A stretch of 31,177 nucleotides of DNA from positions 1 through 31,177 of IMG/VR virus record IMGVR_UViG_2713896907_000007, one strand, 5' to 3'. The stretch comes from a virus (Duplodnaviria; Heunggongvirae; Uroviricota; Caudoviricetes). Within the stretch, counting starts at the first letter, position 1; every line of letters begins with the position of its first letter. Position numbers and translations under genes: made by a program. The notes beneath the pieces are model-generated. The model had not been told where the DNA came from. It made no database searches and saw only the letters and a program-made list of their open reading frames with translations. Below are positions 6,894-31,177 of this stretch, piece after piece.

Positions 6894-8000
6894 ATGGATG
6901 TCAATGAACTTAGAGAGTTGCTTATCAAGTATAATGACCTTCAAAATACTGATGAAGTCTATACGTTTTATTATGATGAAACGAATAACATTCGAAAACT
7001 ATATTTAAAAGATTCTGGCTTTAATGTTGTAAAGGCGGATAACTTCATCCTTGCAGGAATACTACACAAAGGGTTAAGCACTGACAGCGATTATTCAACC
7101 CTGTTTCAAAAGCTTAATCTTCAAAAAAGTGTCAATGAGTTAAAACTCAGATATATCGCTAAGGGTGGTTTTTTGGATATGCTTAAATCCGATAAGCTTT
7201 TAATTATTCTAAACTGGCTTATCGAAAACAATTTCTACATCCATTATTTTAATCTTAATATCACATACTGGTCTATTATTGACATTGTTGATTCTATTAT
7301 TGGAGAGCTACATAATCCTTTTTATATCATGAACCACATGTCACTTAAGAGCGATTTTTATGAGCTTACCAATAGCAATCCCGATGTTTTCCTGAATGCT
7401 CTACATAAATTTAACTACCCCGATATTCCAGAAGAAAAAATTTATGAGTTTTGCCTCTGGCTTATCGATTTTACATGCATGCACAGTTGTATGCTGCCAG
7501 ATTTTCGAGCACACGCACTCGAAAATTTGGTTAAAGAATCTCTAAAAATCGAAGAACTACCGTTCATATCGGGATTTCATGGTCGAAAACTGATCGATAG
7601 CTTTATGGTATTTTATTTAAGAAACTTGTATCTATTTAAAAATTCCGTTCACATATTTGATGAAGAAAAAAGCATTCAAGATGAAGTTAAAAACTTCCCG
7701 TTAACTGAAAATGGCATACCAATACAGAATCATGAATTCGTTAAATCCCACAACTCAGAGGCTATCCAACTATCTGATGTTATCGCAGGCTTTTTGGGTA
7801 AGTATTTTTCTTACTTAAAAGATGTAAATGACGAGCAATTAGCGATTGATAAGTCAGCCTTAACGAGCAAGCAATTTAAGACCCTTTCTGCGTTAAAACA
7901 CATTATTGATGTTTCTGATGATGTTAGCAGAGGATTTTTTAATGAAGTTAGCAGCGAGGGAGAGCGACGGAGAAATAATCGTTTTTTACATGGCGTATAA
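6894..8000 (+). CDS. Hypothetical 368-aa protein in AT-rich cargo island at the Z/fun position; candidate anti-phage or accessory gene
   Basis: Long ORF on the strand opposite to the flanking late genes, strongly AT-rich relative to the backbone, with SD GGGG about 6 nt before ATG. Sits exactly where P2 carries Z/fun. No Walker A, HNH or transmembrane signature seen; N-terminal YTFYYDETNN motif noted. Confidence 0.8.
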   Translation: MDVNELRELLIKYNDLQNTDEVYTFYYDETNNIRKLYLKDSGFNVVKADNFILAGILHKGLSTDSDYSTLFQKLNLQKSVNELKLRYIAKGGFLDMLKSDKLLIILNWLIENNFYIHYFNLNITYWSIIDIVDSIIGELHNPFYIMNHMSLKSDFYELTNSNPDVFLNALHKFNYPDIPEEKIYEFCLWLIDFTCMHSCMLPDFRAHALENLVKESLKIEELPFISGFHGRKLIDSFMVFYLRNLYLFKNSVHIFDEEKSIQDEVKNFPLTENGIPIQNHEFVKSHNSEAIQLSDVIAGFLGKYFSYLKDVNDEQLAIDKSALTSKQFKTLSALKHIIDVSDDVSRGFFNEVSSEGERRRNNRFLHGV

Positions 8001-8099: not shown

Positions 8100-8678
8100 T
8101 TATTGCGGCATTTCTGGCCATTCTATATCCGGAGTATTTTCCGACTGAACGCGATTCAGTAGCACACGGTATTTTTTCCAGTGTGTCAGGCTTAACCTTT
8201 CTTCCTCGGTAGCCATATCTAAATCGACAGCATCCTGCAGCGTGGCAATAATTTCACCTGCATATGCAATCAGCTCTTTCTTCTGAGAGTCAGCCGCTCT
8301 GACAAGCGCATCACGCTCTGCATTCTCATCATTCACCCACGCATTTCCGTTCCATTTCTGATAATCCCCATCCGGGGAAATGGCTGTCACGTCTGGAGGT
8401 AATGCGCCAAGTTCAGAAATATAAATGGCTGCTCCTGTTTTTGTTTCATAGACAGTCTTTCCACGATGGTCTTCCACCAGATCCCATTTCATTTCATCTG
8501 CATTGAAAACGGCGGCAAAACCCACCGGAATATCTGGAGGTGCAATGTCTGTACTGTTTGCTGGAAGACCTGTATGCGGCGGAATATATGCGTCACTTTC
8601 GCCAATAAATTCATTGGTTCCATCAAGTAAATTGAAAACGCGGATAGTTTGTGTCTCTGCACTCATTCTGAAAGTCAT
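8100..8678 (-). CDS. G: Tail fibre assembly chaperone G
   Basis: 192-aa ORF whose C-terminus (...[17 protein letters not shown]) resembles P2 gpG while the N-terminus diverges; ATG overlaps H stop (TAATG). Confidence 0.85.
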
Positions 8679-19361: not shown

Positions 19362-21134
19362 ATGACCATCACCACAGACACCACTCTTTTACACGACCCG
19401 CGTCGTCAGGCGGCGCTGCTGTACTGGCAGGGGTTTTCCGTGCCGCAGATTGCCGCCATGTTGCAGATGAAACGCCCGACGGTGCAGAGCTGGAAACAGC
19501 GCGACGGCTGGGACAGCGTTGCCCCCATCAGCCGTGTCGAAATGAGTCTGGAAGCGCGACTGACCCAGCTCATCATCAAACCGCAGAAAACCGGTGGTGA
19601 CTTCAAGGAAATTGACCTGCTCGGACGCCAGATTGAACGACTGGCACGGGTAAACCGCTACAGTCAGACCGGCAACGAGGCAGACCTTAATCCGAACGTC
19701 GCTAACCGCAACAAAGGCGGGCGTCGCAAACCGAAAAAGAATTTTTTCAGTGACGAGGCCATCGAAAAGCTGGAGCAGATTTTCTTTGAGCAGTCTTTCG
19801 ACTATCAGTTGCACTGGTATCGCGCCGGGCTTGAGCACCGCATCCGCGATATCCTGAAATCCCGCCAGATTGGCGCGACGTTTTATTTTTCCCGCGAGGC
19901 GCTGCTGCGTGCCCTGAAAACCGGTCATAACCAGATTTTTCTGTCGGCCAGTAAAACGCAGGCGTATGTGTTCCGCGAATACATCATCGCCTTTGCCCGT
20001 CTGGTTGACGTTGACCTGACCGGTGACCCGATTGTCCTGGGCAATAACGGCGCAAAACTGATTTTTCTCGGCACCAACTCCAACACCGCGCAGAGTCATA
20101 ACGGCGACCTGTACGTCGATGAGATTTTCTGGATCCCGAATTTTCAGGTACTGCGTAAGGTGGCATCAGGTATGGCCTCACAGAGTCACCTGCGCTCGAC
20201 CTATTTCTCCACCCCGTCCACGCTGGCGCACGACGCCTACCCGTTCTGGTCGGGTGAACTGTTTAACCGGGGACGCGCCAGCGCCGCCGAACGCGTGGAA
20301 ATCGACGTCAGTCATAACGCCCTTGCCGGTGGGCTTCTCTGTGCGGACGGCCAGTGGCGACAGATTGTCACCATTGAGGACGCCCTGAAAGGCGGCTGCA
20401 CGCTGTTCGACATTGAGCAGCTCAAACGCGAAAACAGCGCCGACGATTTTAAAAACCTGTTCATGTGTGAATTTGTTGACGACAAGGCATCGGTGTTCCC
20501 GTTCGAGGAGCTGCAACGCTGCATGGTCGACACGCTGGAAGAATGGGAAGACTATGCGCCGTTTGCCGCCAATCCGTTCGGCTCCCGCCCGGTATGGATT
20601 GGTTACGACCCGTCACACCGTGGCGACAGCGCCGGATGCGTGGTACTGGCACCGCCGGTGGTGGCCGGTGGCAAATTCAGAATACTTGAGCGTCACCAGT
20701 GGAAAGGCATGGACTTTGCCACCCAGGCGGAATCCATCCGCAAACTCACCGAAAAATACAACGTCGAATACATCGGTATTGATGCCACCGGCCTCGGTGT
20801 CGGCGTGTTCCAGCTCGTGCGCTCGTTCTATCCCGCCGCGCGTGATATCCGCTACACGCCGGAAATGAAAACCGCAATGGTGCTCAAGGCAAAAGACGTT
20901 ATCCGCCGTGGCTGTCTGGAATACGACGTCAGCGCCACCGACATCACCAGCTCGTTTATGGCTATCCGCAAGACCATGACCAGCAGCGGACGCAGCGCCA
21001 CCTATGAGGCCAGCCGCAGCGAGGAAGCCAGCCACGCCGACCTCGCCTGGGCGACCATGCACGCCCTGTTAAATGAGCCACTCACCGCCGGTATCAGCAC
21101 CCCGCTGACATCCACCATTCTGGAGTTTTACTGA
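19362..21134 (+). CDS. P: Terminase large subunit P (590 aa)
   Basis: ORF 19332..21134 begins at a TTG; the ATG at 19362 (MTITTDTTLLHDPRRQ...) is preceded by GAGGT and gives about 590 aa like P2 gpP. Confidence 0.9.
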   Translation: MTITTDTTLLHDPRRQAALLYWQGFSVPQIAAMLQMKRPTVQSWKQRDGWDSVAPISRVEMSLEARLTQLIIKPQKTGGDFKEIDLLGRQIERLARVNRYSQTGNEADLNPNVANRNKGGRRKPKKNFFSDEAIEKLEQIFFEQSFDYQLHWYRAGLEHRIRDILKSRQIGATFYFSREALLRALKTGHNQIFLSASKTQAYVFREYIIAFARLVDVDLTGDPIVLGNNGAKLIFLGTNSNTAQSHNGDLYVDEIFWIPNFQVLRKVASGMASQSHLRSTYFSTPSTLAHDAYPFWSGELFNRGRASAAERVEIDVSHNALAGGLLCADGQWRQIVTIEDALKGGCTLFDIEQLKRENSADDFKNLFMCEFVDDKASVFPFEELQRCMVDTLEEWEDYAPFAANPFGSRPVWIGYDPSHRGDSAGCVVLAPPVVAGGKFRILERHQWKGMDFATQAESIRKLTEKYNVEYIGIDATGLGVGVFQLVRSFYPAARDIRYTPEMKTAMVLKAKDVIRRGCLEYDVSATDITSSFMAIRKTMTSSGRSATYEASRSEEASHADLAWATMHALLNEPLTAGISTPLTSTILEFY

Positions 21135-22168
21135 TGAGCAAGAAAAAAGGGAAAACACCGCAACCTGCGGCAAAAAAAATGACCGCCAGCGCCCCGAAAA
21201 TGGAGGCATTCACCTTTGGTGAGCCGGTGCCGGTGCTCGACCGCCGTGACATTCTGGATTACGTCGAATGTATCAGTAACGGCAGATGGTATGAGCCGCC
21301 GGTCAGCTTTACCGGTCTGGCAAAAAGCCTGCGTGCTGCCGTACATCACAGCTCACCGATTTACGTCAAACGTAATATTCTGGCTTCAACGTTTATCCCG
21401 CACCCGTGGCTGTCCCAGCAGGATTTCAGCCGCTTTGTGCTGGATTTTCTGGTGTTCGGTAATGCGTTTCTGGAAAAGCGTTACAGCACCACCGGCAAGG
21501 TCATCAGACTGGAAACCTCACCGGCAAAATATACCCGCCGTGGTGTGGAAGAGGATGTTTACTGGTGGGTGCCGTCCTTCAACGAGCCGACAGCCTTCGC
21601 GCCCGGTTCCGTGTTTCACCTGCTGGAGCCGGATATTAATCAGGAGCTGTACGGCCTGCCGGAATATCTCAGCGCCCTTAACTCTGCCTGGCTGAATGAG
21701 TCAGCCACGCTGTTCCGCCGCAAGTATTACGAAAACGGCGCGCATGCCGGATACATCATGTACGTCACCGATGCCGTGCAGGACCGCAACGATATCGAAA
21801 TGCTTCGCGAAAACATGGTGAAGTCGAAAGGCCGCAATAACTTTAAAAACCTGTTTCTCTATGCCCCACAGGGGAAAGCCGACGGCATTAAAATTATCCC
21901 GCTCAGTGAAGTGGCGACGAAGGACGATTTTTTTAATATCAAAAAAGCCAGCGCCGCTGACCTGCTGGATGCGCACCGCATCCCCTTTCAGTTGATGGGC
22001 GGCAAGCCAGAGAACGTCGGGTCGCTGGGTGATATTGAGAAAGTGGCAAAGGTCTTTGTCCGCAATGAGCTTATCCCGTTACAGGACAGGATTCGGGAAA
22101 TAAACGGCTGGCTCGGTCAGGAGGTCATCCGCTTTAAAAACTACTCACTGGACACTGACAACGGCTGA
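21134..22168 (+). CDS. Q: Portal protein Q (344 aa)
   Basis: 344-aa ORF whose start overlaps the P stop; size and position next to cos match P2 gpQ. Confidence 0.92.
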   Translation: MSKKKGKTPQPAAKKMTASAPKMEAFTFGEPVPVLDRRDILDYVECISNGRWYEPPVSFTGLAKSLRAAVHHSSPIYVKRNILASTFIPHPWLSQQDFSRFVLDFLVFGNAFLEKRYSTTGKVIRLETSPAKYTRRGVEEDVYWWVPSFNEPTAFAPGSVFHLLEPDINQELYGLPEYLSALNSAWLNESATLFRRKYYENGAHAGYIMYVTDAVQDRNDIEMLRENMVKSKGRNNFKNLFLYAPQGKADGIKIIPLSEVATKDDFFNIKKASAADLLDAHRIPFQLMGGKPENVGSLGDIEKVAKVFVRNELIPLQDRIREINGWLGQEVIRFKNYSLDTDNG

Positions 22169-22173
22169 ACATC

Positions 22174-22195
22174 GCCGCCTGCGGGCGGCTTTTTT
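22174..22195 (+). terminator. Intrinsic terminator after Q
   Basis: GCCGCC-tgcg-GGCGGC hairpin (22174..22189) followed by TTTTTT (22190..22195), 6 nt after the Q stop. Confidence 0.7.
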
Positions 22196-22337
22196 ACACC
22201 CCGTCAGCACGCCCTCACACGCTCACCTCCGCGCAAAACACCCCGCAGACAAACCAACACCCCGGCACACAATCTAAACGCCATCACGACGCGCTCAAAC
22301 GCTGAAAAAATAAAATCAGCACCACTGCCAGCGCGCA

Positions 22338-22356
22338 GTGCTTTCCCCGCCTCGCC
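22338..22356. other. cos: cos cohesive-end site (19 nt)
   Basis: GTGCTTTCCCCGCCTCGCC is the exact reverse complement of GGCGAGGCGGGGAAAGCAC, which I recall as the P2 19-nt cohesive end; it lies about 170 bp past the Q stop in a C/A-rich tract, as in P2. Confidence 0.75.
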
Positions 22357-22512
22357 CGCCCGCTTCATGGGGCGGTTTTAATGCAGTTGCAATACCGCTT
22401 TTGAGCCACGCCAGTCTTGGCGGACGCACGGCCAGAACATGTAACTCCGGCACATGCAAAACCATGCACATATTGCATGCACAGATAAAAACGGGGATAT
22501 CACAGAAAAAGC

Positions 22513-22543
22513 ACAAAAAAAACCGGCATTCATGATGCCGGTT
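22513..22543 (-). terminator. Intrinsic terminator for leftward transcripts leaving the cargo island (possibly bidirectional)
   Basis: 9-bp stem AACCGGCAT/ATGCCGGTT (22521..22529 and 22535..22543) with 5-nt loop; on the minus strand it is followed by a run of eight T (complement of 22515..22522). Confidence 0.65.
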
Positions 22544-22681
22544 CTGATCAATTTTTATAGTTGTCACTGGCCGCGCAATGCACCAATCACACTGTTGAGG
22601 CACGTACTGACAACAATTAGCAGAAAAATCGTTGTCCACGGACTTTCATAAATGTGAGATAACTTCTTGATATAGATCATT

Positions 22682-22813
22682 TTATTTATTCATTCTGATG
22701 TGATTTAACAGGTATTTTATAACGACCATAAGCTCATCTTTACTGGCTTGTTCAACCATTTTTTCAGTGTAACTGTCCACCTCGCGAGAGCTCAGGTCGT
22801 TATTTAAGGCCAT
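22682..22813 (-). CDS. Small hypothetical protein (43 aa from the SD-preceded Met; ORF could extend to 22963)
   Basis: ORF 22682..22963 overlaps the start of the opposite-strand ORF at 22875; the internal Met at 22813 has an AGAGG SD about 9 nt upstream. Start is uncertain and the protein may not be real. Confidence 0.3.
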   Translation of the reverse strand: MALNNDLSSREVDSYTEKMVEQASKDELMVVIKYLLNHIRMNK

Positions 22814-22874
22814 TACAGTTAGCCTCTTTGCCCAGTCGGCATAAGGGTCTTTAATTGATGAAAGGGAACTATGC

Positions 22875-23312
22875 ATGTCCAAAAATCTCGAATTATTCAA
22901 CCAACAGACGGCAGAAATCTTTGCGGTGCTATGGGATAACTTTCCTGTACCACAAGTCATCACCTACAAAAAATTTAACGCCGCGTTACCTGATGACTAC
23001 TTTGACCAACTTAACTCACCAGAAATGAAAGCACTGAATCAGTTGCGTAGTGTGGTTGATGGCACATTCACTTTCCTAAGCGAAAACGGCTATATTCTGT
23101 ACGGAACAGACCATCAGACCGGTTTTCATGATGTGCGCCTGACCGAGAAAGCACTCGCGGTGCTCAACAAAAAACCCGAAGCACTTGGCGGTAATGAAAC
23201 GATGGGTGATAAAATTATCAGTGCAGTAAAAGACGGAACTCCAGGTGTAATTGCTGGAGCAGTGACAAACCTGTTGACTCTTGGCGTTAATTTTGTGACG
23301 TCAGCTTCATAG
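22875..23312 (+). CDS. Hypothetical 145-aa protein with hydrophobic Gly/Ala-rich C-terminal segment; unknown cargo gene
   Basis: ORF in the cos-A cargo island, convergent with the RT operon; C-terminus DGTPGVIAGAVTNLLTLGVNFV looks like a membrane helix. No recognisable catalytic motif. Confidence 0.5.
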   Translation: MSKNLELFNQQTAEIFAVLWDNFPVPQVITYKKFNAALPDDYFDQLNSPEMKALNQLRSVVDGTFTFLSENGYILYGTDHQTGFHDVRLTEKALAVLNKKPEALGGNETMGDKIISAVKDGTPGVIAGAVTNLLTLGVNFVTSAS

Positions 23313-23338
23313 CTAACTACTTTCTGAGGTTTCTAATC

Positions 23339-23381
23339 AACGCCGCCTGCATCGAAAGTAAATTCCTGCACTTGCGGCGTT
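23339..23381. terminator. Hairpin between convergent genes, possible bidirectional terminator
   Basis: 8-bp arms AACGCCGC (23339..23346) and GCGGCGTT (23374..23381) around a 27-nt loop, between the 145-aa ORF stop (23312) and the RT stop (23436). Weak: large loop, no clean T-run. Confidence 0.35.
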
Positions 23382-23435
23382 ACTAACGCCAAGTCATTTT
23401 AATTATTGATGCTTTTATGCAATACATTCAATATG

Positions 23436-24386
23436 TTAATTTGCAGTATTAGCCTTTAAAGTAAGCACCTTCGATTTGTAACGTTGCTCAATCACTCCCA
23501 TTGAATGCAAACGGCCAAAGAGCTTTTTGGCAATGATTGTTTCTCTCGCATTTTCGGCGTCTTTAATTATTTTCCAATAATCTATTTCCCTAGCCATCAA
23601 AAAATGCTGCTCATTCCTAACTTTTAAAGCATTACCGAATACAATAACTCCAGTTACCAACTTAGGCTTATCTCTGGCATATAATTTTGTTTTCGTTGGG
23701 TGTATAACATGTCCATGCTTATTAACGATCTTACGAATTACAGCGCAAAACAATCGATTTACGTTACTACCTGAAAAAGTGAGATCATCAACATAAACAG
23801 TCATGTTAACTCGTAACTTTTGGCAAAGTTGATATATTTCACCAAACATTCTTGAATTTGCAAAATATGCCAACGGCATACTGATGCGACTACCTGTTGG
23901 TAATCGGTCATGACAAGTACATATGTGGGACAAAACATCAGCAACATCAGATGACATTTTCATCACCGAAAAGAAAAAAGAAAATATCATCCCTCTTGTA
24001 GTTGATGGAAAAAAAGCTTTAATATCTGTTGTCATCATCTTTTCATTATTAAGATGAGCTTTAGCATTCGTCACATTAGAGCACTTCTTCTTCCCCGAGT
24101 GCAGATATTCTGGCAAAGCAATCCGTGATAACAAACTTGCAATTCGTGTATGTACAAGTTCTAGTTTTTCTAAAGGCTTTTGTATTTTTCGTGCTTTTCC
24201 TTTTTTAGAAAGTTGCTCAAAAACGGAATAGTTTCCTTCATCTTTTCTCAAAGAGTATAATTCTTCAAGACTAACACAAAGCAAATTCGCCAGTTTTCTT
24301 TTACTTTTGAGTTTGTAAAATGGCGAATCCATTATGTCATAAGATTTATTTTTAGTATTAACCTTAAGCTTTTTCCGTTTTTTCAT
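23436..24386 (-). CDS. Reverse transcriptase, retron-type (316 aa)
   Basis: Motifs seen in translation: NAKAH (NAxxH, aa 107-111), TDIKAFFPS (motif A Asp), LPTGSRISMPLA (motif B region), YVDD (motif C, aa 198-201, DNA 23784..23795) and KLVTGVIV (VTG, aa 244-246). Size and motif order resemble retron RTs such as Ec86 as I recall them. AT-rich. Confidence 0.85.
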   Translation of the reverse strand: MKKRKKLKVNTKNKSYDIMDSPFYKLKSKRKLANLLCVSLEELYSLRKDEGNYSVFEQLSKKGKARKIQKPLEKLELVHTRIASLLSRIALPEYLHSGKKKCSNVTNAKAHLNNEKMMTTDIKAFFPSTTRGMIFSFFFSVMKMSSDVADVLSHICTCHDRLPTGSRISMPLAYFANSRMFGEIYQLCQKLRVNMTVYVDDLTFSGSNVNRLFCAVIRKIVNKHGHVIHPTKTKLYARDKPKLVTGVIVFGNALKVRNEQHFLMAREIDYWKIIKDAENARETIIAKKLFGRLHSMGVIEQRYKSKVLTLKANTAN

Positions 24387-24684
24387 TTTTATTACTTACC
24401 CACTCCAGAACATCCAGAACTTTACCGGCTAAATTTAAACGCAATCGCTTAGACAAACGGCCTTGCGTGCCTAATGATTCCGAAAAGAATACTAAAGAGG
24501 ATACTGGTATGTCGAAATGGGAGGCGTAACGCTCTAAGACTTCAATCGACGGTGACCAAACTCCGCTTTCAAGCGATACTATTTTGTCTTTTGGAATACC
24601 TAAAGATGAAGATAACTCAACTATTGATTCTTTATGGTATTGCCTTATTAAACGAAGGGCTTTATGTAACATAGGCAACTCCAT
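24364..24684 (-). CDS. XRE-family helix-turn-helix protein (106 aa), co-operonic with the RT
   Basis: LRLIRQYHKESIVELSSSLGIPKDKIVSLESG fits a Cro/C1-type HTH; its 3' end overlaps the RT start by 23 nt, implying translational coupling. Confidence 0.75.
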   Translation of the reverse strand: MELPMLHKALRLIRQYHKESIVELSSSLGIPKDKIVSLESGVWSPSIEVLERYASHFDIPVSSLVFFSESLGTQGRLSKRLRLNLAGKVLDVLEWVSNKNEKTEKA

Positions 24685-24708
24685 GCTATTGAAACTAGGG
24701 AGGACGCA

Positions 24709-24864
24709 TTACTCACCACCCCCTTCTAAGTAGTCCAGTGCTCGAGTGACTAAATCAAACAGTCTAATACCCCATTTGAATAATTCCCAAGCATAACCAG
24801 CCCTCTTTTTCAGGTTTGACTTGTTCTGCGCCTGCTGTTCGTTGGTTAATTTATCATTCTTCAT
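24709..24864 (-). CDS. Small hypothetical protein (51 aa) at the head of the HTH-RT operon
   Basis: ATG at 24864 is preceded by a strong SD AAGGAG with a 6-nt spacer; it ends 24 nt before the HTH start. The longer ORF 24709..25122 upstream of this Met runs through hairpin-rich DNA and is probably not coding. Confidence 0.45.
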   Translation of the reverse strand: MKNDKLTNEQQAQNKSNLKKRAGYAWELFKWGIRLFDLVTRALDYLEGGGE

Positions 24865-25100
24865 GATTTGCTCCTTATGCCCATAGTGTGCAAACGGTAT
24901 GTCTGCTCCAACACTATGGTTCGCCCTCATAAGGATGAGATTGAACAGCACTAGCTCCCTGCTCCACGAACCCTTTGTCGCCCAAAGGGTTCGAATTCCC
25001 ATACGCCATACCACCTGGTCCTGTGACTCTTGTCGCTGGCAGGGGCGTTGCGCGGGGTAAACGGTAGAAAGTGTTAACTTTCCACGGGTAAAAAATACCC
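24865..25100 (-). ncRNA. Candidate structured non-coding RNA (possible retron msr/msd) upstream of the RT operon
   Basis: Non-coding stretch with several hairpins: 9-bp stem 24881..24889/24911..24919; 11-bp stem CGAACCCTTTG/CAAAGGGTTCG 24967..24993 with 5-nt loop; 6-bp stem 25067..25082; 5-bp stem 25086..25100. A retron RT needs an adjacent msr/msd RNA. Boundaries and a1/a2 repeats not identified. Confidence 0.25.
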
Positions 25101-25281
25101 AATTGATGGCGATGTATCTCACTAACTAACCAATAATTGCATCATAACAAGTAAACCGTTGTATTTGATCTTTCTATATATAATATTTTTTCATATAAAA
25201 CCAAACATTAACAACAAAGAAGAATAACACATATTAAAGCGATATACGATATACGTTCATTACATTGAATTTTAAAGTGTT
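25101..25281 (-). promoter_or_regulatory. AT-rich intergenic region between A and the RT cassette, presumed cassette promoter
   Basis: About 180 bp of very AT-rich DNA containing a tandem GATATAC GATATAC near 25241..25254; only weak -35/-10 candidates on the minus strand (TTGTTA at 25150..25145). Confidence 0.3.
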
Positions 25282-27570
25282 TTATATGAAAAATGACACG
25301 CCATCTTGAAACCCGAACCACTCATTAGCAACCAGATACGTGAATTTTTTCCCGCCATAATTTACGGTTGCCCCACGCGCCAGCGCCTCAAGCTCCCATC
25401 GCTGCGGCCTGATACCGTTCTGAGCAAGGTCAACGCGGATACGGGTAATTTGCATTCGTTCCGACCGGGTCAGTCTGGCCGATGGTGCCATTTCATACTG
25501 TTTTAACGGGCTTCCGTTTCTCTGCTGACGATTTGGTGTTCTCAGCCCGTGTTTTAATGCGTCCCTGAGCGCCCTCACGACCTCCGGGTCATTCCATTCG
25601 ATAACACCGTCATCAACCAGATTAAGCACTGCTGCGGCGTGCTCAGAAGGTGTGGGAGCCGGTAACGAAGTATCACCACCGGAGAGCTTTCCACAGTTAT
25701 TGACAGGACTCCGAGGCGCGGCGATGCCGCTTTTTAAAGTCAAAGGCTCAACGACCGGCACTTTCGGAACAATGCGCCAGTCCGTCGTTCTGGTGATATG
25801 AATATGACGCGCGCCGAGATGCGGCGCGTAAATGCCGACCACTCTCTCGACTTCTTCCTCGTACTCGTTAACTTCATCCGACGGACTACGGGCGACCCTG
25901 ACAGTCTGACAATCGCGCGGGACATTTGCCCCACCCTGCGCGCTGATATACAGCGCAAAATCGCCACTGTCTGCGGCAGCGCGTGCAGCCTCGACGCGTT
26001 CGTCAAACTCATCAGCAATGCTGACGCCGCGAGGTAATTTGCGTAGTTCACGGTAAGCCCCCATTGTCGGCAGGCCAACCGTTTTAAATTGCGGAATGCG
26101 CCACGTTGACGCCCATGCGGTAACAGCCGCGGCAGTGTCTTTCAGCGGCCTGCCGGTATCGTTATCGAGCTGACCATCCAGTGCATAGCCGTCGATGTTT
26201 TTTGAAATGTATTTCGCGATATACCCCGCAGCACCGCCCCGGTTAAGGTGTTTTGCCTGAAAACGGTTTCGCGCGGCTCCTCTTTCGTCGCCATCCTCTT
26301 TGAGCGCATAGCGACGCATGATTTCGATAATCTGGTTACGCTGGCGCGGATTACAAAAAAGCATCATATGCCAGTGCGGCGTTCCGTCGTGGTGTGGCTC
26401 GACGACACGCAAACCGTAGACCTGTAAATCATTATCCTTGAATGCCGTGCGCATCAGGCTCCAGATACGGCAGAGATAACGCTGCGCATCCTTTGGATTA
26501 AATGCCTCATCGTTCCAGCCGTGATTTAGCTGGACGGTTTTACTTTCGCCTTTTCTGACCTGACGTGTCGGGTGATACTTTGACGGCGCGGTCAGCGTGA
26601 TAAACATCCCCACATCACCCTCTGCTGCGGCGTAACGCTCAATACCAGCAATGGTGTTCATCAGCTCCATCCGGCGAATTTCAGGATTAGAAATACTGCC
26701 CATCACCTTACTGATAAGGTCGATGCGCTCGCCGGTTTCCCTGTTTTCAAGGTCACACGATTTAAGAAATTCCAGATTTGCCTGGCGGCGCGCACGCACA
26801 TCACGAATGGCATGTTTACTGGCATAAGGAGAACGGTCTTTATTGACCTCCCCGACAGCTATCAGTAACGCCTCATGCCAGCGCATACGCTGGCCTTTAA
26901 GCTGATGAGTCCACCACTCATCGTTAAACAGGCGGGCAATGGCAGAATATGCCTGCCTCGTGGTCATCTGTCCTTTACGGTATTTTTTCCAGTAGAGCGG
27001 GGAAATATTGAAAGCACGTGCAGCGCCAGCAACATGACCATAGAGGTGAGCCTGCGCCTCATCCGTAAACAGCGATTCTTTTTCGCCATGTGCATCAACC
27101 CAGGTATCGCAGAGTTCCTCATACATCATGAAAAGCTGCGATGAGATACGGGCAGCAAACTTTTTCAGCTCCTTGTCATTCATTCCCGGCAGGCGCGCAT
27201 AGTGGTCACGCTCTGCCAGAAACAGCAACGACGCGTCGGTGTTCATTTCATGGCGCTGATTCACACGCTCAATGCGCGGCCATAAACGACGCTGAAAAGT
27301 GGATGTGAGGAAATAAAACCCGTGCACCGGGCTTTTATTGCGCCGGATGTAGTCATAACGTGAAGTAAACAGCGAGCGCAAAAAGTAAGGCAGGCGGTTA
27401 ATCGTGGATAAAACACCTTGCACCTGACGCATCTCGTCACGTGTAAGGGGTCTTTCGCGCCCGACAGCCTCGCGTGGCGCGTTCCATGCATAAGCACCGG
27501 TAAACGTCTTACCGGTGCCTGCGGCAAATGCTGACGGAGGGACAAAACGCCCGGAGGCTTTAACGGCCAT
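25282..27570 (-). CDS. A: Replication initiation protein A (rolling-circle endonuclease, about 762 aa)
   Basis: ORF 25282..27612 trimmed to MAVKASGRFVPPSAFAAGTGKTF..., which avoids overlap with the upstream gene and gives a length close to P2 gpA (761 aa). Confidence 0.9.
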   Translation of the reverse strand: MAVKASGRFVPPSAFAAGTGKTFTGAYAWNAPREAVGRERPLTRDEMRQVQGVLSTINRLPYFLRSLFTSRYDYIRRNKSPVHGFYFLTSTFQRRLWPRIERVNQRHEMNTDASLLFLAERDHYARLPGMNDKELKKFAARISSQLFMMYEELCDTWVDAHGEKESLFTDEAQAHLYGHVAGAARAFNISPLYWKKYRKGQMTTRQAYSAIARLFNDEWWTHQLKGQRMRWHEALLIAVGEVNKDRSPYASKHAIRDVRARRQANLEFLKSCDLENRETGERIDLISKVMGSISNPEIRRMELMNTIAGIERYAAAEGDVGMFITLTAPSKYHPTRQVRKGESKTVQLNHGWNDEAFNPKDAQRYLCRIWSLMRTAFKDNDLQVYGLRVVEPHHDGTPHWHMMLFCNPRQRNQIIEIMRRYALKEDGDERGAARNRFQAKHLNRGGAAGYIAKYISKNIDGYALDGQLDNDTGRPLKDTAAAVTAWASTWRIPQFKTVGLPTMGAYRELRKLPRGVSIADEFDERVEAARAAADSGDFALYISAQGGANVPRDCQTVRVARSPSDEVNEYEEEVERVVGIYAPHLGARHIHITRTTDWRIVPKVPVVEPLTLKSGIAAPRSPVNNCGKLSGGDTSLPAPTPSEHAAAVLNLVDDGVIEWNDPEVVRALRDALKHGLRTPNRQQRNGSPLKQYEMAPSARLTRSERMQITRIRVDLAQNGIRPQRWELEALARGATVNYGGKKFTYLVANEWFGFQDGVSFFI

Positions 27571-27835
27571 ATGAGCCAAAAGCCTCTGAACAACGCCTGC
27601 TGAGTTGCTCAACCTGCGCGTTTAAATCAGCAAAAGACTTTGCGCTTCCGGTCAGAATATCGTGATGCATCAGGCCGGAAACGAGCTGGCTTAATTTCGG
27701 GTAATAACCAACCACCGCCAGCCATTCCTGACCGGCGTTTTTACCGCTTTCCGCTCTCTTTTTCTCGTGGAGAATAAACTGAAAGCTGTCACTGGTAACG
27801 ACATAACGTTCGCCAATTTCAATACGAATGCTCAT
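27560..27835 (-). CDS. Hypothetical protein (91 aa), P2 orf83-like
   Basis: 91-aa ORF directly upstream of A in the early operon. Confidence 0.75.
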   Translation of the reverse strand: MSIRIEIGERYVVTSDSFQFILHEKKRAESGKNAGQEWLAVVGYYPKLSQLVSGLMHHDILTGSAKSFADLNAQVEQLSRRCSEAFGSYGR

Positions 27836-28056
27836 GCCATTCTCCGGTAATGTTTGTTTTTTGCTTCAAAGACTGACTGACAGGAAACACAACGCGTGGC
27901 TGACGGATAAGCCGCACGACGGGCAGCAGGTATTGGCGCGTCACACTCTTCGCAAACCAGCGCAGAAGCACCGCAATGTTTTACTCTTGCCGCGTTAATC
28001 TGGCGCTCCAGTAATTCAGCCTGTTGTTCCTGAATAAAATCTACGTTGTCCGGCAT
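27832..28056 (-). CDS. TraR/DksA-family C4 zinc-finger protein (74 aa), P2 orf82-like
   Basis: CEECDAPIP...CVSC four-cysteine pattern in a 74-aa protein; position matches P2 orf82. Confidence 0.8.
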   Translation of the reverse strand: MPDNVDFIQEQQAELLERQINAARVKHCGASALVCEECDAPIPAARRAAYPSATRCVSCQSVFEAKNKHYRRMA

Positions 28057-28361
28057 TACCAGCTCCTTTTGTCGTTAAGTTTTTTAAATTCATCAGCGCA
28101 ATAGCTGGCAATTTCTGTCGTTAATTTCGTCAGTTCATCCACGGAGGAGATTTGCTTGTGAAATACAGCGCGTTTAACAAGTAAATTGACCACATCAGAC
28201 AGGAGATTTAATTCGTTCTGATAAATCGCGATAACAGACTCAGTTATTTCGCGTTTTTCTTTATCAAGACCCAGTTGAATAAGAGACAAATCGCCATTTT
28301 TCATAACAGCGATTTTTAAGGCGTTATTCAGTAATACAACTGAATGAGAACAGGACATCAA
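28056..28361 (-). CDS. Hypothetical protein (101 aa), P2 orf81-like
   Basis: ORF in the early operon with overlapping stop/start junctions. Confidence 0.7.
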
Positions 28362-28582
28362 AGCACCTCCCCGCGAGATAATCCGATATTGTGAAATTTT
28401 TCCGACTCCTGACTGAGCAGCTCGACTATCTCCACGCGGGATAACTCCGCCTTTGTGATGTGGCGAATCATGGCGTCAAGATGAGAAGAAAAGCGCGTCG
28501 CTGCGTCGGCCTGTGCTTCGGTTCTGGCCTGTTGCAGCAGTAATGCGTATTTACCGCACTGATTTTCAGAAACTGTATGCAT
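28358..28582 (-). CDS. Hypothetical protein (74 aa), P2 orf80-like
   Basis: ORF in the early operon between B and orf81. Confidence 0.7.
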
Positions 28583-28645
28583 GACTTTCTCCAGGCAAAA
28601 AGAAGCCCCGCACGATTAAGTGCGTTAAAAACTCTGGTTAATTAC

Positions 28646-29146
28646 TTAATGCAGATATTGCTCTGGTTTTACCGACGTCAGAATTGTCGGTGCATACTCA
28701 AACAGACTGAATAATTCACGTAACGCACGGAATAAAGCATCACGCCAGTAACATGACTCTTCATTAATTCGCCAGTATGGCTGGTTAAATTCTTTTTCAG
28801 TCAATCCGGCATGCATAAATAAAGTACGGCGCTGACTGACTGTTAAAAAACTAATATATGCATATTCACTTGCGCCAACCTGACGGCGTTTTGAGAATGC
28901 CCCACGCAATTCATCAATTGCACATACCAGTCGTTCACGTTCGACGTCGTTCATTTCTTCAAAACGCATCGTTGCGTGACGCTGTTTTAACTGCGCATGG
29001 AAGCAAACCGTTAGCCGTTCGCGCTCCATCATCTGATTATAATAATCACATGTCTCCTGCCAGCGAGGGACGGCAAGATGCTTACCAATTATCCGGCGCA
29101 TAGCTGCTGGCTGTTTTTCGACGAGATTGAGCGTCATCACTGTCAT
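28646..29146 (-). CDS. B: Replication protein B (166 aa)
   Basis: 166-aa ORF (MTVMTLNLVEKQPAAMRRIIGKHLAVPRWQ...) matching P2 gpB in size and position. Confidence 0.88.
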   Translation of the reverse strand: MTVMTLNLVEKQPAAMRRIIGKHLAVPRWQETCDYYNQMMERERLTVCFHAQLKQRHATMRFEEMNDVERERLVCAIDELRGAFSKRRQVGASEYAYISFLTVSQRRTLFMHAGLTEKEFNQPYWRINEESCYWRDALFRALRELFSLFEYAPTILTSVKPEQYLH

Positions 29147-29313
29147 TTCCAGACCCTCCGGCTTTTCAGAAAGGTCAGAGCCTTTTTTAACGGACTCTGT
29201 TTTTTGGTGCGGATAATGATTCCCTTGCGACCCTTACCGTGGGTGATGGTGAAGTCAATCGCCCTGGGGCTTTCGTTACGCAATAACTGAGCAATACAAC
29301 GAGGCTCGTTCAT
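29143..29313 (-). CDS. Small basic protein (56 aa), P2 orf78-like
   Basis: ORF 29143..29403 would overlap cox by 80 nt; the internal Met at 29313 has an SD AAGGTGGAAAGG and begins after the cox stop (29324). Confidence 0.6.
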   Translation of the reverse strand: MNEPRCIAQLLRNESPRAIDFTITHGKGRKGIIIRTKKQSPLKKALTFLKSRRVWK

Positions 29314-29323
29314 CCTTTCCACC

Positions 29324-29695
29324 TTAAGCCGCACGGCCATGTCTTGATTTGCTGTAACTAATGCGATTTTTCCAGTCATGCCATTCTGTCGGAGCTTCAT
29401 CAACTAGCTGGGCTGCGTACTTGTCCCACTCACGGCGATTAATCCATAATTCAGCTTTCCCTCTTGGTTTTAATGGGTCTGTCATGTAGAAGGCTGGCAG
29501 CTTTCCTGCTTTAGCCATTTCAGCCACCGCGCGTGGTGTCTTACCGATGTAAAGAGCAAAACCTTCTTTCGACAGCAAATCAGATGGGCGCTCTGAAATC
29601 TGAATGCTTTTACGTTTGGCTTCATTTTCGAAACTTGCCTCATCGCTAGTTGGACAAGAAATTTCTACATTTGTCGTCACTTTGCTATCCTCCAT
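29324..29695 (-). CDS. cox: Cox-like excisionase/transcriptional regulator (up to 123 aa)
   Basis: Core FALYIGKTPRAVAEMAKAGKLPAFYMTDP resembles the P2 Cox HTH region (..IGKSTGAVRRMIDKGKLPVIDMTDP) as I recall it; first gene of the leftward early operon, divergent from C. N-terminus about 29 aa longer than P2 Cox, so the true start may lie downstream (a GTG at codon 6 follows GGAGGA). Confidence 0.75.
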   Translation of the reverse strand: MEDSKVTTNVEISCPTSDEASFENEAKRKSIQISERPSDLLSKEGFALYIGKTPRAVAEMAKAGKLPAFYMTDPLKPRGKAELWINRREWDKYAAQLVDEAPTEWHDWKNRISYSKSRHGRAA

Positions 29696-29788
29696 AAGAT
29701 TTGCGATTCACCAACTGGAGCCATCTAGAGCCTTTTTGAGCAAATCACAAATTGCCAAGTAACAATATAATTGGAGATTAGCAAAATT
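29696..29788. promoter_or_regulatory. Lysis-lysogeny switch region (divergent Pe/Pc promoters and operators, inferred)
   Basis: 93-bp gap between divergent cox and C; in P2 this holds the face-to-face promoters and the C operators. Imperfect direct repeats GATTCACC (29705..29712) and AATCACAA (29743..29750) noted but not verified as operators. Confidence 0.45.
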
Positions 29789-30088
29789 ATGTCAAGTGAA
29801 CAAAGTGAGAAACTAAAGCTCATCCGTGAATCTGAACGCCTTAAAACTAAGGAACTTGCTGAATTAATTGGAATTAATTACTACACATATCATGGATATG
29901 AATCAGGAAAATCAAAAATGCCTATGGAAGCAGGTATGAAGCTGTTTAAGCATCCACGCTTTCGCAAGTATCGTGACTGGTTCATGTTTGATGAAACAGA
30001 TCCAGCAGCTGGACAAATAGCCCCGGCTCTCGCACACATTGGGCAAGACTCAACAACCTTGCACCACTCAGACCAGAAGACTGGCTGA
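29789..30088 (+). CDS. C: Immunity repressor C (99 aa)
   Basis: ORF 29771..30088 begins at a TTG; the ATG at 29789 gives 99 aa, and the C-terminus ...GQIAPALAHIGQDSTTLHHSDQKTG closely resembles the P2 C repressor as I recall it. Confidence 0.85.
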   Translation: MSSEQSEKLKLIRESERLKTKELAELIGINYYTYHGYESGKSKMPMEAGMKLFKHPRFRKYRDWFMFDETDPAAGQIAPALAHIGQDSTTLHHSDQKTG

Positions 30089-30181
30089 CGATTTATTCAG
30101 CATATGTGTGTAGTAAATGTACGAAAGAAAATTGCATTAATTTTCAAGTAGTAGAAGTAAACAGCGTCATCGGAGGGCTTT

Positions 30182-31177
30182 ATGTCTATTAAAAAGCTCG
30201 ATGATGGTCGTTATGAAGTGGACGTCAGACCGCAGGGTGCAGATGGAAAACGTATCAGGCGGAAATTTAAAACTAAAGGTGAAGCTCAAGCATTCGAACG
30301 TCATGTACTGGTTAACTACCACAACAAAGAGTGGTTGGAGAAACCAGCCGACCGCCGAACTCTTACAGAGTTGTTAGGCAGATGGTGGATATATCACGGA
30401 AAATCACATGAGCGTGGAGATATTGAACGGGGGCGTTTAACGACAATAATCGCCAAATTTGCAGAAATGGGAGTGTCCAGAGCTGACCAGCTAACAAAGA
30501 AAACGATAACTGATTATCGCGTTGTAATGATGAACGATGGTCTGAAACCAGCCAGCGTAAATCGACATCTGGCAATAATGAGCGGGATGTTCACCAAGTT
30601 AATTGACGCCGGTGAATACCACTCTCACAACCCGTTCCGTGAGATTAAACGGTTACGTGAAGCTGTTACGGAAATGGCTTTTTTGTCCAGTGAAGAGATT
30701 ACGCGGCTGTTATCCATGCTTGATGGTGATGAATTAAATGCAACTCTGGTCTGCCTTTCTACTGGTGGACGCTGGAGTGAAGTGTCTAATTTAAAAGCTG
30801 AACACATCATTAACCAGATGGTTACGTTTATGAAAACTAAAAACGGAAAACGCAGGACAATTCCCGTTTCGCAGGACCTGATTAAACGGATCAAGACCAA
30901 AAATTCAGGCAGGCTTTTTAATGCCAGTTACTACAAAGTGCGTAACGCTCTCAGGGAAGTAAAACCCGATTTACCTGACGGACAAGCAGTACATGTTTTG
31001 AGGCATACATTTGCCACACATTTTATAATGAATGGAGGTAACATAATCACATTGCAGCGCATCCTGGGTCATTCTAACATTCAGCAAACTATGACCTACG
31101 CACACTTTGCACCGGATTTCTTACAAGATGCTGTGACTCTTAACCCGGTGTCAGGAATGTCCATAATGCGTCCATAA
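30182..31177 (+). CDS. int: Tyrosine integrase (331 aa)
   Basis: MSIKKLDDGRYEVDVRPQGADGKRIRRKF... N-terminus and C-terminal catalytic region HVLRHTFATHFIMNGGNIITLQRILGHSNIQQTMTYAHF (R..H..R/H..Y) resemble the P2 integrase; stop codon is the last 3 bases of the window. Confidence 0.92.
   Translation: MSIKKLDDGRYEVDVRPQGADGKRIRRKFKTKGEAQAFERHVLVNYHNKEWLEKPADRRTLTELLGRWWIYHGKSHERGDIERGRLTTIIAKFAEMGVSRADQLTKKTITDYRVVMMNDGLKPASVNRHLAIMSGMFTKLIDAGEYHSHNPFREIKRLREAVTEMAFLSSEEITRLLSMLDGDELNATLVCLSTGGRWSEVSNLKAEHIINQMVTFMKTKNGKRRTIPVSQDLIKRIKTKNSGRLFNASYYKVRNALREVKPDLPDGQAVHVLRHTFATHFIMNGGNIITLQRILGHSNIQQTMTYAHFAPDFLQDAVTLNPVSGMSIMRP

Follow-up and report, generated by a model that had tools for sequence, protein, structure and literature searches.

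A probable Type VI retron of the Retron-Vpa2 lineage in the cos-proximal defence hotspot of a P2-like (pro)phage

The question raised by this locus is what kind of genetic element occupies the interval between gene A and the cos site of a P2-like phage genome. Within the window, by which we mean the entire 31,177-nucleotide stretch of viral DNA that was analysed, this interval holds three minus-strand ORFs in the same orientation: a 51-aa small protein (SP; 24709..24864), a helix-turn-helix (HTH) protein first called at 24364-24684, and a 316-aa reverse transcriptase (RT; 23436-24386). The cassette has a GC content of 0.34-0.36, compared with 0.53-0.62 in the phage backbone. A first-pass annotation, made from the sequence letters alone, had described an AT-rich, retron-type RT operon with an XRE-type HTH protein, and both the composition and the operon type are borne out by the results given below, as are the ORFs and the RT motifs that it listed. 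We consider it highly probable that the cassette represents a complete Type VI retron, belongs to the Retron-Vpa2 lineage and is cargo that a P2-like (pro)phage carries in its gpA-cos-gpQ defence hotspot.

The position of the cassette is established by its neighbours. P2 gene A (25282-27612, minus strand) lies on one side. On the other lie the portal gene (21134-22168) and, at 22338..22356 (minus strand), an exact match to GGCGAGGCGGGGAAAGCAC, which we take to be the P2 cos 19-mer and of which only 0.02 occurrences would be expected by chance. Given this exact match, the locus can be identified as the cos-proximal gpA-gpQ hotspot, in agreement with the earlier proposal that the cassette sits where P2 carries tin and old. 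This locus is a known defence hotspot in P2-like phages, and the systems listed for it include retrons (Rousset et al. 2022, PMC9122126).

The limits of the element differ somewhat from those first proposed. A GC-rich palindrome at 23376..23390 (no strand assigned), recognized by a terminator-like scan match and by its sequence, is located between the convergent RT gene and a 145-aa ORF, and is a candidate for a bidirectional terminator and for the distal end of the cassette. In the upstream direction, the functional unit reaches to approximately position 25120, or 25150 with its promoter, and is longer than the three ORFs because a structured RNA lies ahead of them. The first-pass annotation had missed this RNA, which includes the msr-msd-like region. 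A sigma-70 consensus scan upstream of the RNA returned no promoter site. By eye, a candidate extended -10 element (TGtTATGAT) can be seen at 25141-25149.

At least 80% of a 3.1-kb locus that includes the element is carried by 29 genomes; among the 15 of these genomes that were listed, nucleotide identity ranges over 93.8-99.7%. The three intact ORFs encode proteins that are each 99-100% identical to a counterpart in another E. coli genome. The match to P2_2H1, a phage with the retron only, spans window positions 23442-25299. The same cassette is present in P2-like phages of Klebsiella and E. coli, and also lies after gpA on contigs of Yersinia and Serratia. We considered and rejected an adjacent two-gene module (22682-23312) as a part of the retron, given that each occurs without the other: phages Midge and FSLSP004 carry the module without the retron (part of the module also matches SW9), and P2_2H1 and a Serratia prophage carry the retron without the module.

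Retron Type VI is defined in part by an RT of retron clade 3, the Type VI group (Mestre et al. 2020). The window RT matches the PADLOC RT_VI profile over positions 1-278 of 279 (E 1.4e-105, 350.5 bits), leading the next-best retron family, RT_III-A (152 bits), by about 200 bits, and its NCBIfam matches are to retron families only. This profile score and 55% identity to the RT of the Vibrio parahaemolyticus locus that we take as Retron-Vpa2 assign the protein to retron clade 3/Type VI, and by its RT relatives the cassette appears to belong with the 'Large' Type VI lineage that contains Vpa2. The accession of the window RT is not in the RT tree of the Retron-Sen3 preprint (Garcia-Rodriguez et al., bioRxiv 10.64898/2026.04.27.721009). 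The expected motifs occur in order, namely NAKAH (residues 107-111), TDIKAFFPS (120-128), LPTG (162-165), YVDD (198-201) and VTG (244-246), and the key residues N107, A108, H111, D121, P163-G165, Y198-D201, T245 and G246 are invariant in a comparison of 16 RTs that share 48-84% identity. Among these motifs, NAxxH and VTG are the ones that define retron RTs.

The first-pass annotation had allowed that the RT might instead group with Abi, DRT or group II intron enzymes. A defence RT of the Abi-P2/AbiA/AbiK type or of the DRT (UG) group would act without a templating ncRNA. P2-like coliphages reportedly carry a functional RT gene at this variable locus (Odegrip 2006, as cited by Rousset et al. 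2022), which would suit such an enzyme, as would the Pfam result for the window protein, where the sole RT domain recognized is the generic RVT_1, above its cut-off. However, all of the best 25 PADLOC matches listed are retron RTs, with no Abi or DRT family among them, and the two retron-defining motifs are present and invariant. Moreover, Abi and UG RTs usually carry an extra C-terminal domain, whereas the window protein is a bare 316-aa RT with nothing added. Such RTs also come without an HTH_VI protein or an msr-msd RNA, and the window gene is accompanied by a cognate HTH_VI protein and by an ncRNA that covaries and whose homologue is known to serve as a retron template. We therefore regard a non-retron defence RT as exceedingly improbable.

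[quoted passage not shown] 2020). The window protein matches the PADLOC HTH_VI profile over positions 1-91 of 92 (E 7.7e-31, 104 bits), together with weak Pfam matches to HTH_3/19/31, and is 48% identical to the HTH protein of the Vpa2 locus. Its start is most likely at 24672 rather than 24684, because GGAG is found 6 nt upstream, RefSeq protein WP_001310277.1 agrees, and the PADLOC profile begins at residue 5 of the longer ORF. The gene would then span 24364..24672 (minus strand) and encode a Cro/C1-type protein of 102 aa (106 aa from the alternative start). The 3' end of this gene overlaps the RT start by 23 nt. The translational coupling of the two genes that was proposed earlier would be in keeping with this overlap. 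Arg7, a residue that was functionally tested in Vpa2, is conserved in the window protein, and its mutation in Vpa2 is toxic (Zhang et al., bioRxiv 10.1101/2025.10.22.683967).

The structured RNA is a 432-nt hybrid RNA (hyRNA; 24689..25120, minus strand), which comprises an msr-msd-like 5' non-coding domain (24865-25120, minus strand), the SP coding sequence and a 3' tail. It begins about 256 nt upstream of SP, continues through it, and can be aligned over its entire length with homologues at 18 loci, one of them that of Retron-Vpa2. RNAalifold applied to these 19 loci yields 62 consensus pairs, 35 of which exhibit compensatory changes. Paired states fill 96.3% of the consensus cells, compared with 42-54% in slid controls, and the covariation score of 0.428 exceeds the control values (at most 0.136) and was reached by none of 500 shuffles. 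The single-sequence fold is likewise more stable than expected (z = -4.9). Given this covariation support and profile E-values of 1e-105 and 8e-31, the features of the cassette are not products of chance. An Rfam scan of positions 22100-25400 (E <= 10) returned just weak terminator-like matches at 22465-22619; neither a retron msr nor a group II intron was among the results, nor was any other family of relevance. Type VI hyRNAs are evidently absent from Rfam.

The 5' domain contains two conserved hairpins on the minus strand, P1 (25085-25101), with compensatory changes in four of six pairs, and P2 (25066-25083; GGAAAG/CUUUCU), which is 99% paired. These are followed by a hypervariable segment (24994..25065, minus strand) that is a candidate msd, the template for the RT, and forms a long imperfect stem-loop at about 24998-25056. 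This region does not align among homologues, and consequently was left unpaired by RNAalifold and was folded separately for each sequence. Despite its low sequence conservation and a length that ranges from 63 to 123 nt, it folds in all 19 homologues into one long stem, with conserved ACCCC...UGGG as the closing pairs. For Vpa2, Spacer-seq placed a 63-nt msDNA on the long stem-loop of the predicted msr-msd region (Zhang et al.), and the alignment suggests that the window segment is its equivalent. A third hairpin, P3 (24967..24993, minus strand), has a perfect 11-bp stem, with compensatory changes in six of 10 pairs.

Between P3 and SP lies what appears to be a riboregulator. The SP ribosome-binding sequence, whose presence had been noted previously, is AAGGAG (24871-24876), located 6 nt ahead of the ATG, and an anti-SD element, UCCUUAUG (24928-24935, minus strand), is an 8-nt perfect complement of the segment at 24872-24879. 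This pairing is retained in all 19 homologues even though the sequences differ. One copy of a direct repeat, GGGCGAC (24977-24983, minus strand), resides in the P3 loop, and a second, GGGCGAA (24920-24926, minus strand), follows the anti-SD. The two copies change in concert in Vpa2 and A. fischeri. A hairpin adjacent to the ribosome-binding site (24881..24919, minus strand), with 9-nt perfect arms, forms the riboregulator arm, and every pair of helices 9 and 10 carries compensatory changes. Pairing extends into the coding region, where SP codons E9-Q10-Q11 (24833-24840) are complementary to UGCUGUUC at 24943-24950; helix 6 is 100% paired and has three compensatory pairs.

The RNA ends with a conserved tail, GCGUCCUCCCUAGUUUCAA (24689..24707, minus strand), that stops at the HTH ribosome-binding site and folds back on the 5' domain. 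Its CUCCC (24698-24702) pairs with GGGAG (24955-24959), and its GUUUC (24691-24695) pairs with GAGAU at the 5' end (25116-25120). Pairing reaches 96-100% in helices 1, 5 and 11-12; compensatory changes occur in helices 5 and 11-12, and the alignment block C421-C430 is invariant. In retrons generally, the RT copies msDNA from the msd, starting from a branching G; within the invariant CUCCCUAGUUUC tail, the G at 24695 is a possible priming residue. In Vpa2-type hyRNAs, a conserved 7-nt direct repeat is shared by the msd-side loop and the riboregulator (Zhang et al.), and the window RNA has the same design, with predicted ends: an msr-msd domain joined to the SP coding sequence, a 3' end that pairs back, an SP ribosome-binding site and start region held in stems, and a repeat in both places.

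The small protein itself was thought to have no obvious counterpart, and this view is contradicted by its relatives. A syntenic ORF of 45-55 aa, preceded by a Shine-Dalgarno sequence, is present in almost all loci whose RT is at least 40% identical to that of the window, and a profile-profile comparison (hhalign) matches the protein to the Vpa2 SP clade with 90.8% probability (E 1.2e-6). On this synteny and profile homology, we identify it as the SP toxin of Type VI retrons. The ORF ends 36 nt upstream of the HTH start, giving the canonical Type VI arrangement SP-HTH-RT (Mestre et al. 2020). The protein also matches phrog_15287 at 8e-34, and AlphaFold2 models it as one long helix (pLDDT 77). 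An extended ORF of 97-137 aa (24709-25122), which overlaps the ncRNA, was rejected as a real protein because its peptide conservation shifts frame between loci and coincides with covarying RNA helices.

Could the cassette lack any present function, whether as a decayed or inactive remnant or as the gene of a group II intron-type RT? Earlier surveys detected no msDNA from Type VI retrons, which is the kind of result that a remnant would give, and the generic RVT_1 match is the sole other support for such a view. Yet the ORFs are intact, the locus recurs in numerous genomes, the catalytic motifs are invariant, and RNA helices that keep their pairing through compensatory changes imply ongoing selection. 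The group II alternative would call for intron RNA domains and a maturase (X) domain, with an endonuclease domain as an option. The Rfam scan described above recovered no such intron, none of the Pfam matches at E <= 0.1 is to an intron maturase, and the RT carries neither a maturase nor an endonuclease domain. We find either version of this explanation scarcely credible.

If the window element is a Type VI retron of the Vpa2 lineage, then a mechanism can be proposed that starts from the observed parts, RNA structure, sequestered Shine-Dalgarno sequence, repeats and genomic location, and that borrows all of its dynamic steps from Retron-Vpa2 by homology. In uninfected lysogens, the HTH protein would hold reverse transcription low, and the SP ribosome-binding site would be locked in the anti-SD helix, which would keep toxin synthesis low. 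If a superinfecting phage brings Red-like recombination proteins and/or inhibits RecBCD, msDNA of the variable stem would build up. The 5' part of this msDNA would be complementary to the conserved repeat GGGCGA, and could hybridize to repeat copy 2 beside the anti-SD, thereby freeing the Shine-Dalgarno sequence and permitting SP translation. SP would then arrest or kill the cell by abortive infection, and the lysogen population would be protected. For the window copy, statements on msDNA, toxicity, triggers or defence extrapolate from its relatives.

Homology alone does not fix this regulatory logic, because the two characterized Type VI retrons, both described in preprints, differ in mechanism: Vpa2 relies on translational de-repression by msDNA, and Sen3 makes SP and ssDNA constitutively and uses its HTH protein as an antitoxin. 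If the window copy operated as Sen3 does, SP and an RT-dependent ssDNA would always be present, the HTH protein would neutralize the toxin post-translationally, and inhibition of host RecBCD would free the toxin while msDNA levels and SP translation remained unchanged. This mode has been described in Salmonella, an enterobacterium, where it operates in a Type VI retron, the SP-HTH gene pair is laid out like a toxin-antitoxin pair, and loss of the HTH protein is toxic in Vpa2 as well. However, Sen3 belongs to the cl2075 lineage, and its 79-aa SP has a negligible sequence identity to the Vpa2 SP, reported in the preprint as 1.9%; it is the Vpa2 clade that holds the window SP. The window SP is not a member of cl2075, and the RT, HTH protein and hyRNA of the window likewise align with their counterparts in the Vpa2 lineage. 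With both SP length and sequence different and all relatives on the Vpa2 side, we rejected placement of the cassette in the cl2075/Sen3 lineage. Furthermore, the anti-SD helix and the paired repeats are maintained here with compensatory and concerted changes, which argues that translational control is under selection. Sen3-like control of the window copy therefore seems doubtful, and we favour translational de-repression of the Vpa2 kind.

A more speculative view of the RNA is prompted by its tail, where the conserved CUCCC-UA-G-UUUC is paired with the GGGAG that comes directly after the msd/P3 region. The hyRNA might be a circularly permuted retron ncRNA, in the order msd, a2, riboregulator plus SP mRNA, a1 and priming G, with its ends clamped by GAGAU/GUUUC. 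If so, the SP message would lie between the priming site and the template, and reverse transcription, with any subsequent RNase H processing, would remodel or sever it. This arrangement may already be implicit in the figures of the Vpa2 preprint. A second and separate conjecture is that the phage-borne copy is tuned such that induction of P2 itself does not trigger the retron, which, if true, would make it a clean model of how prophages avoid self-targeting by retrons. We regard these ideas as unlikely.

RefSeq currently labels the proteins 'reverse transcriptase family protein', 'helix-turn-helix domain-containing protein' and 'hypothetical protein' and leaves the RNA unannotated; an apt description would be a Type VI retron consisting of hyRNA, SP toxin, HTH protein and RT. 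The Vpa2-type riboregulator, with its anti-SD helix, paired repeats and fold-back 3' tail, is conserved in this phage-borne member native to E. coli. The window copy would be a convenient natural system in which to compare both published Type VI mechanisms in a native host, and it could help to reveal by what means phages with genes for Red-like recombinases or RecBCD inhibitors are excluded by a P2 lysogen.

Among the closest known systems is Retron-Vpa2 of V. parahaemolyticus (Zhang et al.), which shares with the window the published Type VI hallmarks, the operon order ncRNA-SP-HTH-RT and a long variable msd stem. Its SP is 55 aa long, compared with 51 aa here, and in both proteins the N-terminus is polar and contains QQ, the C-terminus is hydrophobic and helical, and the tail is acidic and rich in Gly. 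The hyRNAs align over their full length, with common helices, variable msd stem, direct repeat and anti-SD helix, but the repeat reads GGGCGA in the window and GGACGAA in Vpa2, and the candidate msd sequences are unrelated. Unrelated msd sequences are usual among retrons. The locus taken as Vpa2 is chromosomal, near hipA and rpoD/dnaG, whereas the window copy is hotspot cargo of a P2-like phage in E. coli. At the positions that were mutated in the Vpa2 paper, the SP of the V. parahaemolyticus locus that we identified as Vpa2 has K15, I39, F43 and F45; it also agrees, small differences aside, with the Vpa2 SP fragments in Table S3 of the Retron-Sen3 preprint. The catalytic motif, however, is given as YADD in the Vpa2 paper and reads YVDD in this locus.

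Retron-Eco12 is, like the window copy, an E. coli Type VI retron, and is described as phylogenetically related to Vpa2; no msDNA was detected from it at baseline, and it defends against lambda vir from its native promoter (Zhang et al.). Eco12 may be the window element or a close allele of it, because every named E. coli entry in the top RT matches is 81-99% identical to the window RT. The available text and supplements of both preprints contain no Eco12 sequence or accession. The first-pass annotation was right to recognize an RT-plus-HTH retron class, but its view of this class as one of the less-characterized can no longer be held, given the Eco12 result and the mechanisms presented in two preprints from 2025-2026. 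Retron-Sen3 and its cl2075 lineage (Garcia-Rodriguez et al.) have the same retron type and SP-HTH-RT arrangement, but differ in an SP from another cluster that reaches 79 aa through an N-terminal extension, in an RT from another subclade, and in the post-translational control of constitutive ssDNA and SP. Anti-phage defence has been demonstrated for Vpa2, Eco12 and Sen3 in these two preprints.

The insertion locus next to cos, between gpA and gpQ, and a role as prophage exclusion cargo are features that the window retron has in common with old and tin of P2 and with other cargo of this hotspot in P2-like phages. Old is a nuclease/ATPase and Tin is an exclusion protein that acts against T-even phages, and both are unrelated to the window retron in sequence and mechanism. 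For the shared locus and role, see PMC9122126. The class, its architecture, its RNA and the P2 hotspot location are already published (Mestre 2020; Rousset 2022; Zhang 2025; Garcia-Rodriguez 2026), so the window element opens no new system class or long-standing question and takes its place as an ordinary member of a described anti-phage system.

The three minus-strand ORFs proposed in the first-pass annotation to form a retron operon, encoding a small protein (SP, 24709-24864), an HTH protein (24364-24672) and a reverse transcriptase (RT, 23436-24386), are present as described, and the identification of the RT was accurate. The 316-aa RT ORF carries NAKAH, TDIKAFFPS, LPTG, YVDD and VTG in that order, and across 16 aligned homologues, with identities as low as 48%, the key motif residues do not vary. 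It matches the full PADLOC profile RT_VI (E = 1.4e-105, 350 bits; next retron type, 152 bits), while the HTH protein matches HTH_VI (7.7e-31). All of the best 25 PADLOC RT matches listed are retron families, NCBIfam matches of the RT are to retron families only, and Rfam reported no group II intron at E <= 10. Type VI retrons combine a clade 3 RT with a Cro/C1 HTH protein of 91-110 aa and, in a subset, small accessory proteins (Mestre et al. 2020). The 3' end of the HTH ORF reaches 23 nt into the RT ORF, and the HTH start is more likely 24672 (102 aa) than 24684, because GGAG stands 6 nt upstream of this second ATG, RefSeq uses the same start and alignment to the PADLOC profile does not begin until residue 5 of the longer ORF. 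Counted from 24672, Arg7 lines up with R7 of Retron-Vpa2, whose mutation is toxic (Zhang et al. 2025, bioRxiv 10.1101/2025.10.22.683967).

The window is a P2-like phage or prophage, and the cassette lies within about 2.9 kb of AT-rich sequence (GC 0.34-0.43 versus 0.53-0.62 elsewhere). On one side lie the portal gene (21134-22168, plus strand) and an exact match, at 22338-22356, to the P2 cos 19-mer (0.02 matches expected by chance); on the other lies replication gene A (776 aa; 25282-27612, minus strand). In E. coli prophages that are nearly identical here (99.3% over 3.1 kb), the flanks are annotated as portal protein and replication endonuclease. The earlier placement at the tin/old locus is correct because this is the gpA-gpQ defence hotspot beside cos, where P2 carries old and tin and some relatives carry retrons (Rousset et al. 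2022, PMC9122126). A perfect 15-nt inverted repeat, TTTTTCATATAAAAC / GTTTTATATGAAAAA (25187-25201 and 25279-25293, arms 77 nt apart), spans the gene A stop codon with one arm and could represent a terminator of gene A or a hotspot junction or recombination scar. Just past cos are two terminator-like minus-strand hairpins (22462-22545), the stronger being AGAACCGGCAT...ATGCCGGTTTT followed by a T-run; their weak, sub-threshold Rfam matches to STnc240 and Thr_leader look terminator-driven. Past gene A, GC falls again to 0.39-0.49 at 28000-31000, near the right end of the window.

The retron is an independent unit of about 1.7 kb (about 23440-25150), because similarity to P2_2H1 is restricted to the retron (23442-25299), and the Midge and FSLSP004 phages have in common with the window only a neighbouring two-gene module. 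With Klebsiella phage ST147-VIM1phi7.1, similarity spans 22331-25151. Of 5,426 complete E. coli genomes, 29 have 80% or more of the 3.1-kb locus, and the cassette also follows gpA in Yersinia and Serratia contigs. The neighbouring module (22682-23312), between cos and the retron, comprises a 64-aa ORF (22682-22876, minus strand, phrog_2454) and a 145-aa ORF (22875-23312, plus strand, phrog_2266), neither with a Pfam, PADLOC or NCBIfam match. It is 85-93% identical in the retron-less P2-like phages Midge and FSLSP004 and absent from the retron-bearing P2_2H1 and Serratia prophage, and may be independent hotspot cargo. Two minus-strand ORFs of 396 aa (5404-6594) and 192 aa (8100-8678), which we take from their sequence character to be putative tail sheath and tail fibre assembly genes, flank another AT-rich island (GC 0.33-0.41 at 6500-8000). 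The island encodes a 368-aa DUF3800 protein (6894-8000, plus strand) that matches the PADLOC defence candidate PDC-S51 (4.5e-106) and probably belongs to the cargo of a second P2 hotspot, presumably the Z/fun locus.

The small ORF is indeed preceded by a Shine-Dalgarno (SD) sequence, with AAGGAG 6 nt before its ATG, but the impression that it lacked a counterpart did not hold: synteny and profile homology to the Vpa2 clade identify it as the SP of Type VI retrons. Among the loci fetched, nearly all whose RT shows 40% identity or more have an SD-preceded ORF of 45-55 aa directly upstream of the HTH gene, encoding a polar N-terminus with invariant QQ, a Lys/Arg-rich middle, a hydrophobic or aromatic C-terminal segment and an acidic, Gly-rich end. 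Profile-profile alignment joins the window SP clade to the Vpa2 clade (90.8% probability, E = 1.2e-6), and the family already exists in PHROGs (phrog_15287). AlphaFold2 predicts a single long helix (pLDDT 77); Type VI SPs are described as small helical proteins whose hydrophobic C-terminal helix is required for toxicity (Zhang et al. 2025; Garcia-Rodriguez et al. 2026, bioRxiv 10.64898/2026.04.27.721009). Membership in the cl2075 cluster of Retron-Sen3 was rejected, since the Sen3 SP has 79 aa and the window SP belongs to the Vpa2 clade; the Sen3 and Vpa2 SPs are only 1.9% identical (Garcia-Rodriguez et al. 2026). The SP frame also extends upstream (24709-25122, minus strand) as a mechanical 137-aa GTG ORF with nested ATG ORFs of 73 and 97 aa, and P2_2H1 is annotated with a 130-aa protein (gp41) in this region. 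We rejected this extension as a protein: the conservation it seems to show belongs to the RNA, and the frame differs in the Klebsiella phage. It is an annotation trap.

The 416 nt between gene A and SP hold a structured RNA absent from the first-pass annotation, part of a hybrid RNA (hyRNA, 24689-25120) that includes the SP coding sequence. Homologues span Escherichia, Klebsiella, Serratia, Yersinia, Dickeya, Acerihabitans, Providencia, Xenorhabdus, Aeromonas, Shewanella and Aliivibrio, together with five Vibrio loci that include Vpa2. The RNAalifold consensus has 62 pairs in 12 helices, 35 of the pairs with compensatory changes. By an independent count, 96.3% of cells are paired, whereas shifting the partners by 1-3 columns leaves 42-54%; covariation scores 0.428 versus at most 0.136, and none of 500 shuffles reached the observed values. 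The RNA of this locus, folded on its own, has z = -4.9. A pair of 5' hairpins (25085-25101 and 25066-25083) is accompanied by a hypervariable segment of 63-123 nt that forms one long stem in every homologue. [quoted passage not shown] 2025). There follow a conserved hairpin (24967-24993), a riboregulator arm (24881-24935), the SP coding sequence and a folded-back 3' tail, its CUCCC (24698-24702) pairing with GGGAG (24955-24959) and GUUUC (24691-24695) with the 5'-end GAGAU. Because the invariant QQ codons (GAACAGCA, 24833-24840) pair with UGCUGUUC (24943-24950) with compensatory changes, QQ conservation is at least partly an RNA constraint. Invariant G24695 could be the priming G; it lies 3' of the a1-like CUCCC, the partner of which is found just 3' of the template.

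This anatomy matches the published Vpa2 hybrid RNA, in which stems enclose the SP ribosome-binding site and start codon and a conserved 7-nt direct repeat is shared by the riboregulator and an msd-side loop (Zhang et al. 2025). Both the stem-held ribosome-binding site and the repeat are found in the window. The anti-SD UCCUUAUG (24928-24935) is perfectly complementary to the SD-containing CAUAAGGA (24872-24879), and an equivalent duplex occurs in 19 of 19 loci even though its sequence differs in Vpa2, Aeromonas, Shewanella and others. Repeat copy 1, GGGCGAC (24977-24983), lies in the loop of the 24967-24993 hairpin, and copy 2, GGGCGAA (24920-24926), directly follows the anti-SD; the copies change in concert, both reading GGACGAA in Vpa2 and both GGCGAG in A. 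fischeri.

The locus used for Vpa2 contains P0081, one of many Vibrio RTs that are 54-59% identical to the window RT. In this V. parahaemolyticus locus, the upstream 55-aa ORF has K15, I39, F43 and F45, which are the positions that were mutated in the work on Retron-Vpa2, and is consistent, small differences allowed, with the Vpa2 SP fragments in Table S3 of the Sen3 preprint; we therefore treat the locus as Vpa2 or a near-identical allele. The locus (L085/L086, 2501-3460) agrees with published Vpa2 in these SP residues and in HTH R7, but its RT motif is YVDD, whereas the dead-RT mutant is given as YADD to YAAA in the preprint (Zhang et al. 2025). Either the notation is loose or the preprint tested a different allele.

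Because the riboregulator is conserved, we favour the Vpa2 model, by homology, for the dynamic steps. An RT-HTH-hyRNA complex would hold reverse transcription and SP translation low until phage recombination proteins and RecBCD inhibition cause msDNA to accumulate. Through its 5' part, which is the complement of repeat copy 1, this msDNA would then pair with copy 2 and open the anti-SD helix, and the resulting SP would cause growth arrest and abortive infection. The chief alternative is the logic of Retron-Sen3, in which SP and ssDNA are constitutive, the HTH protein is a protein antitoxin and RecBCD inhibition is the trigger (Garcia-Rodriguez et al. 2026). The favoured Vpa2 mechanism and that of Sen3 may overlap. 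The essentials are all published already: the type and SP-HTH-RT layout (Mestre 2020), retrons in the P2 hotspot (Rousset 2022), and the hyRNA, toxin and triggers (Zhang 2025; Garcia-Rodriguez 2026). Defence by Eco12, an E. coli Type VI member, is likewise reported (Zhang 2025). Standard defence-finding profiles recognise the RT (E = 1e-105) and HTH protein (8e-31), and the retron is of a kind already described and is probably itself a known element. Added here are a base-level annotation of the window's hyRNA and covariation evidence that independently supports the RNA features already published.
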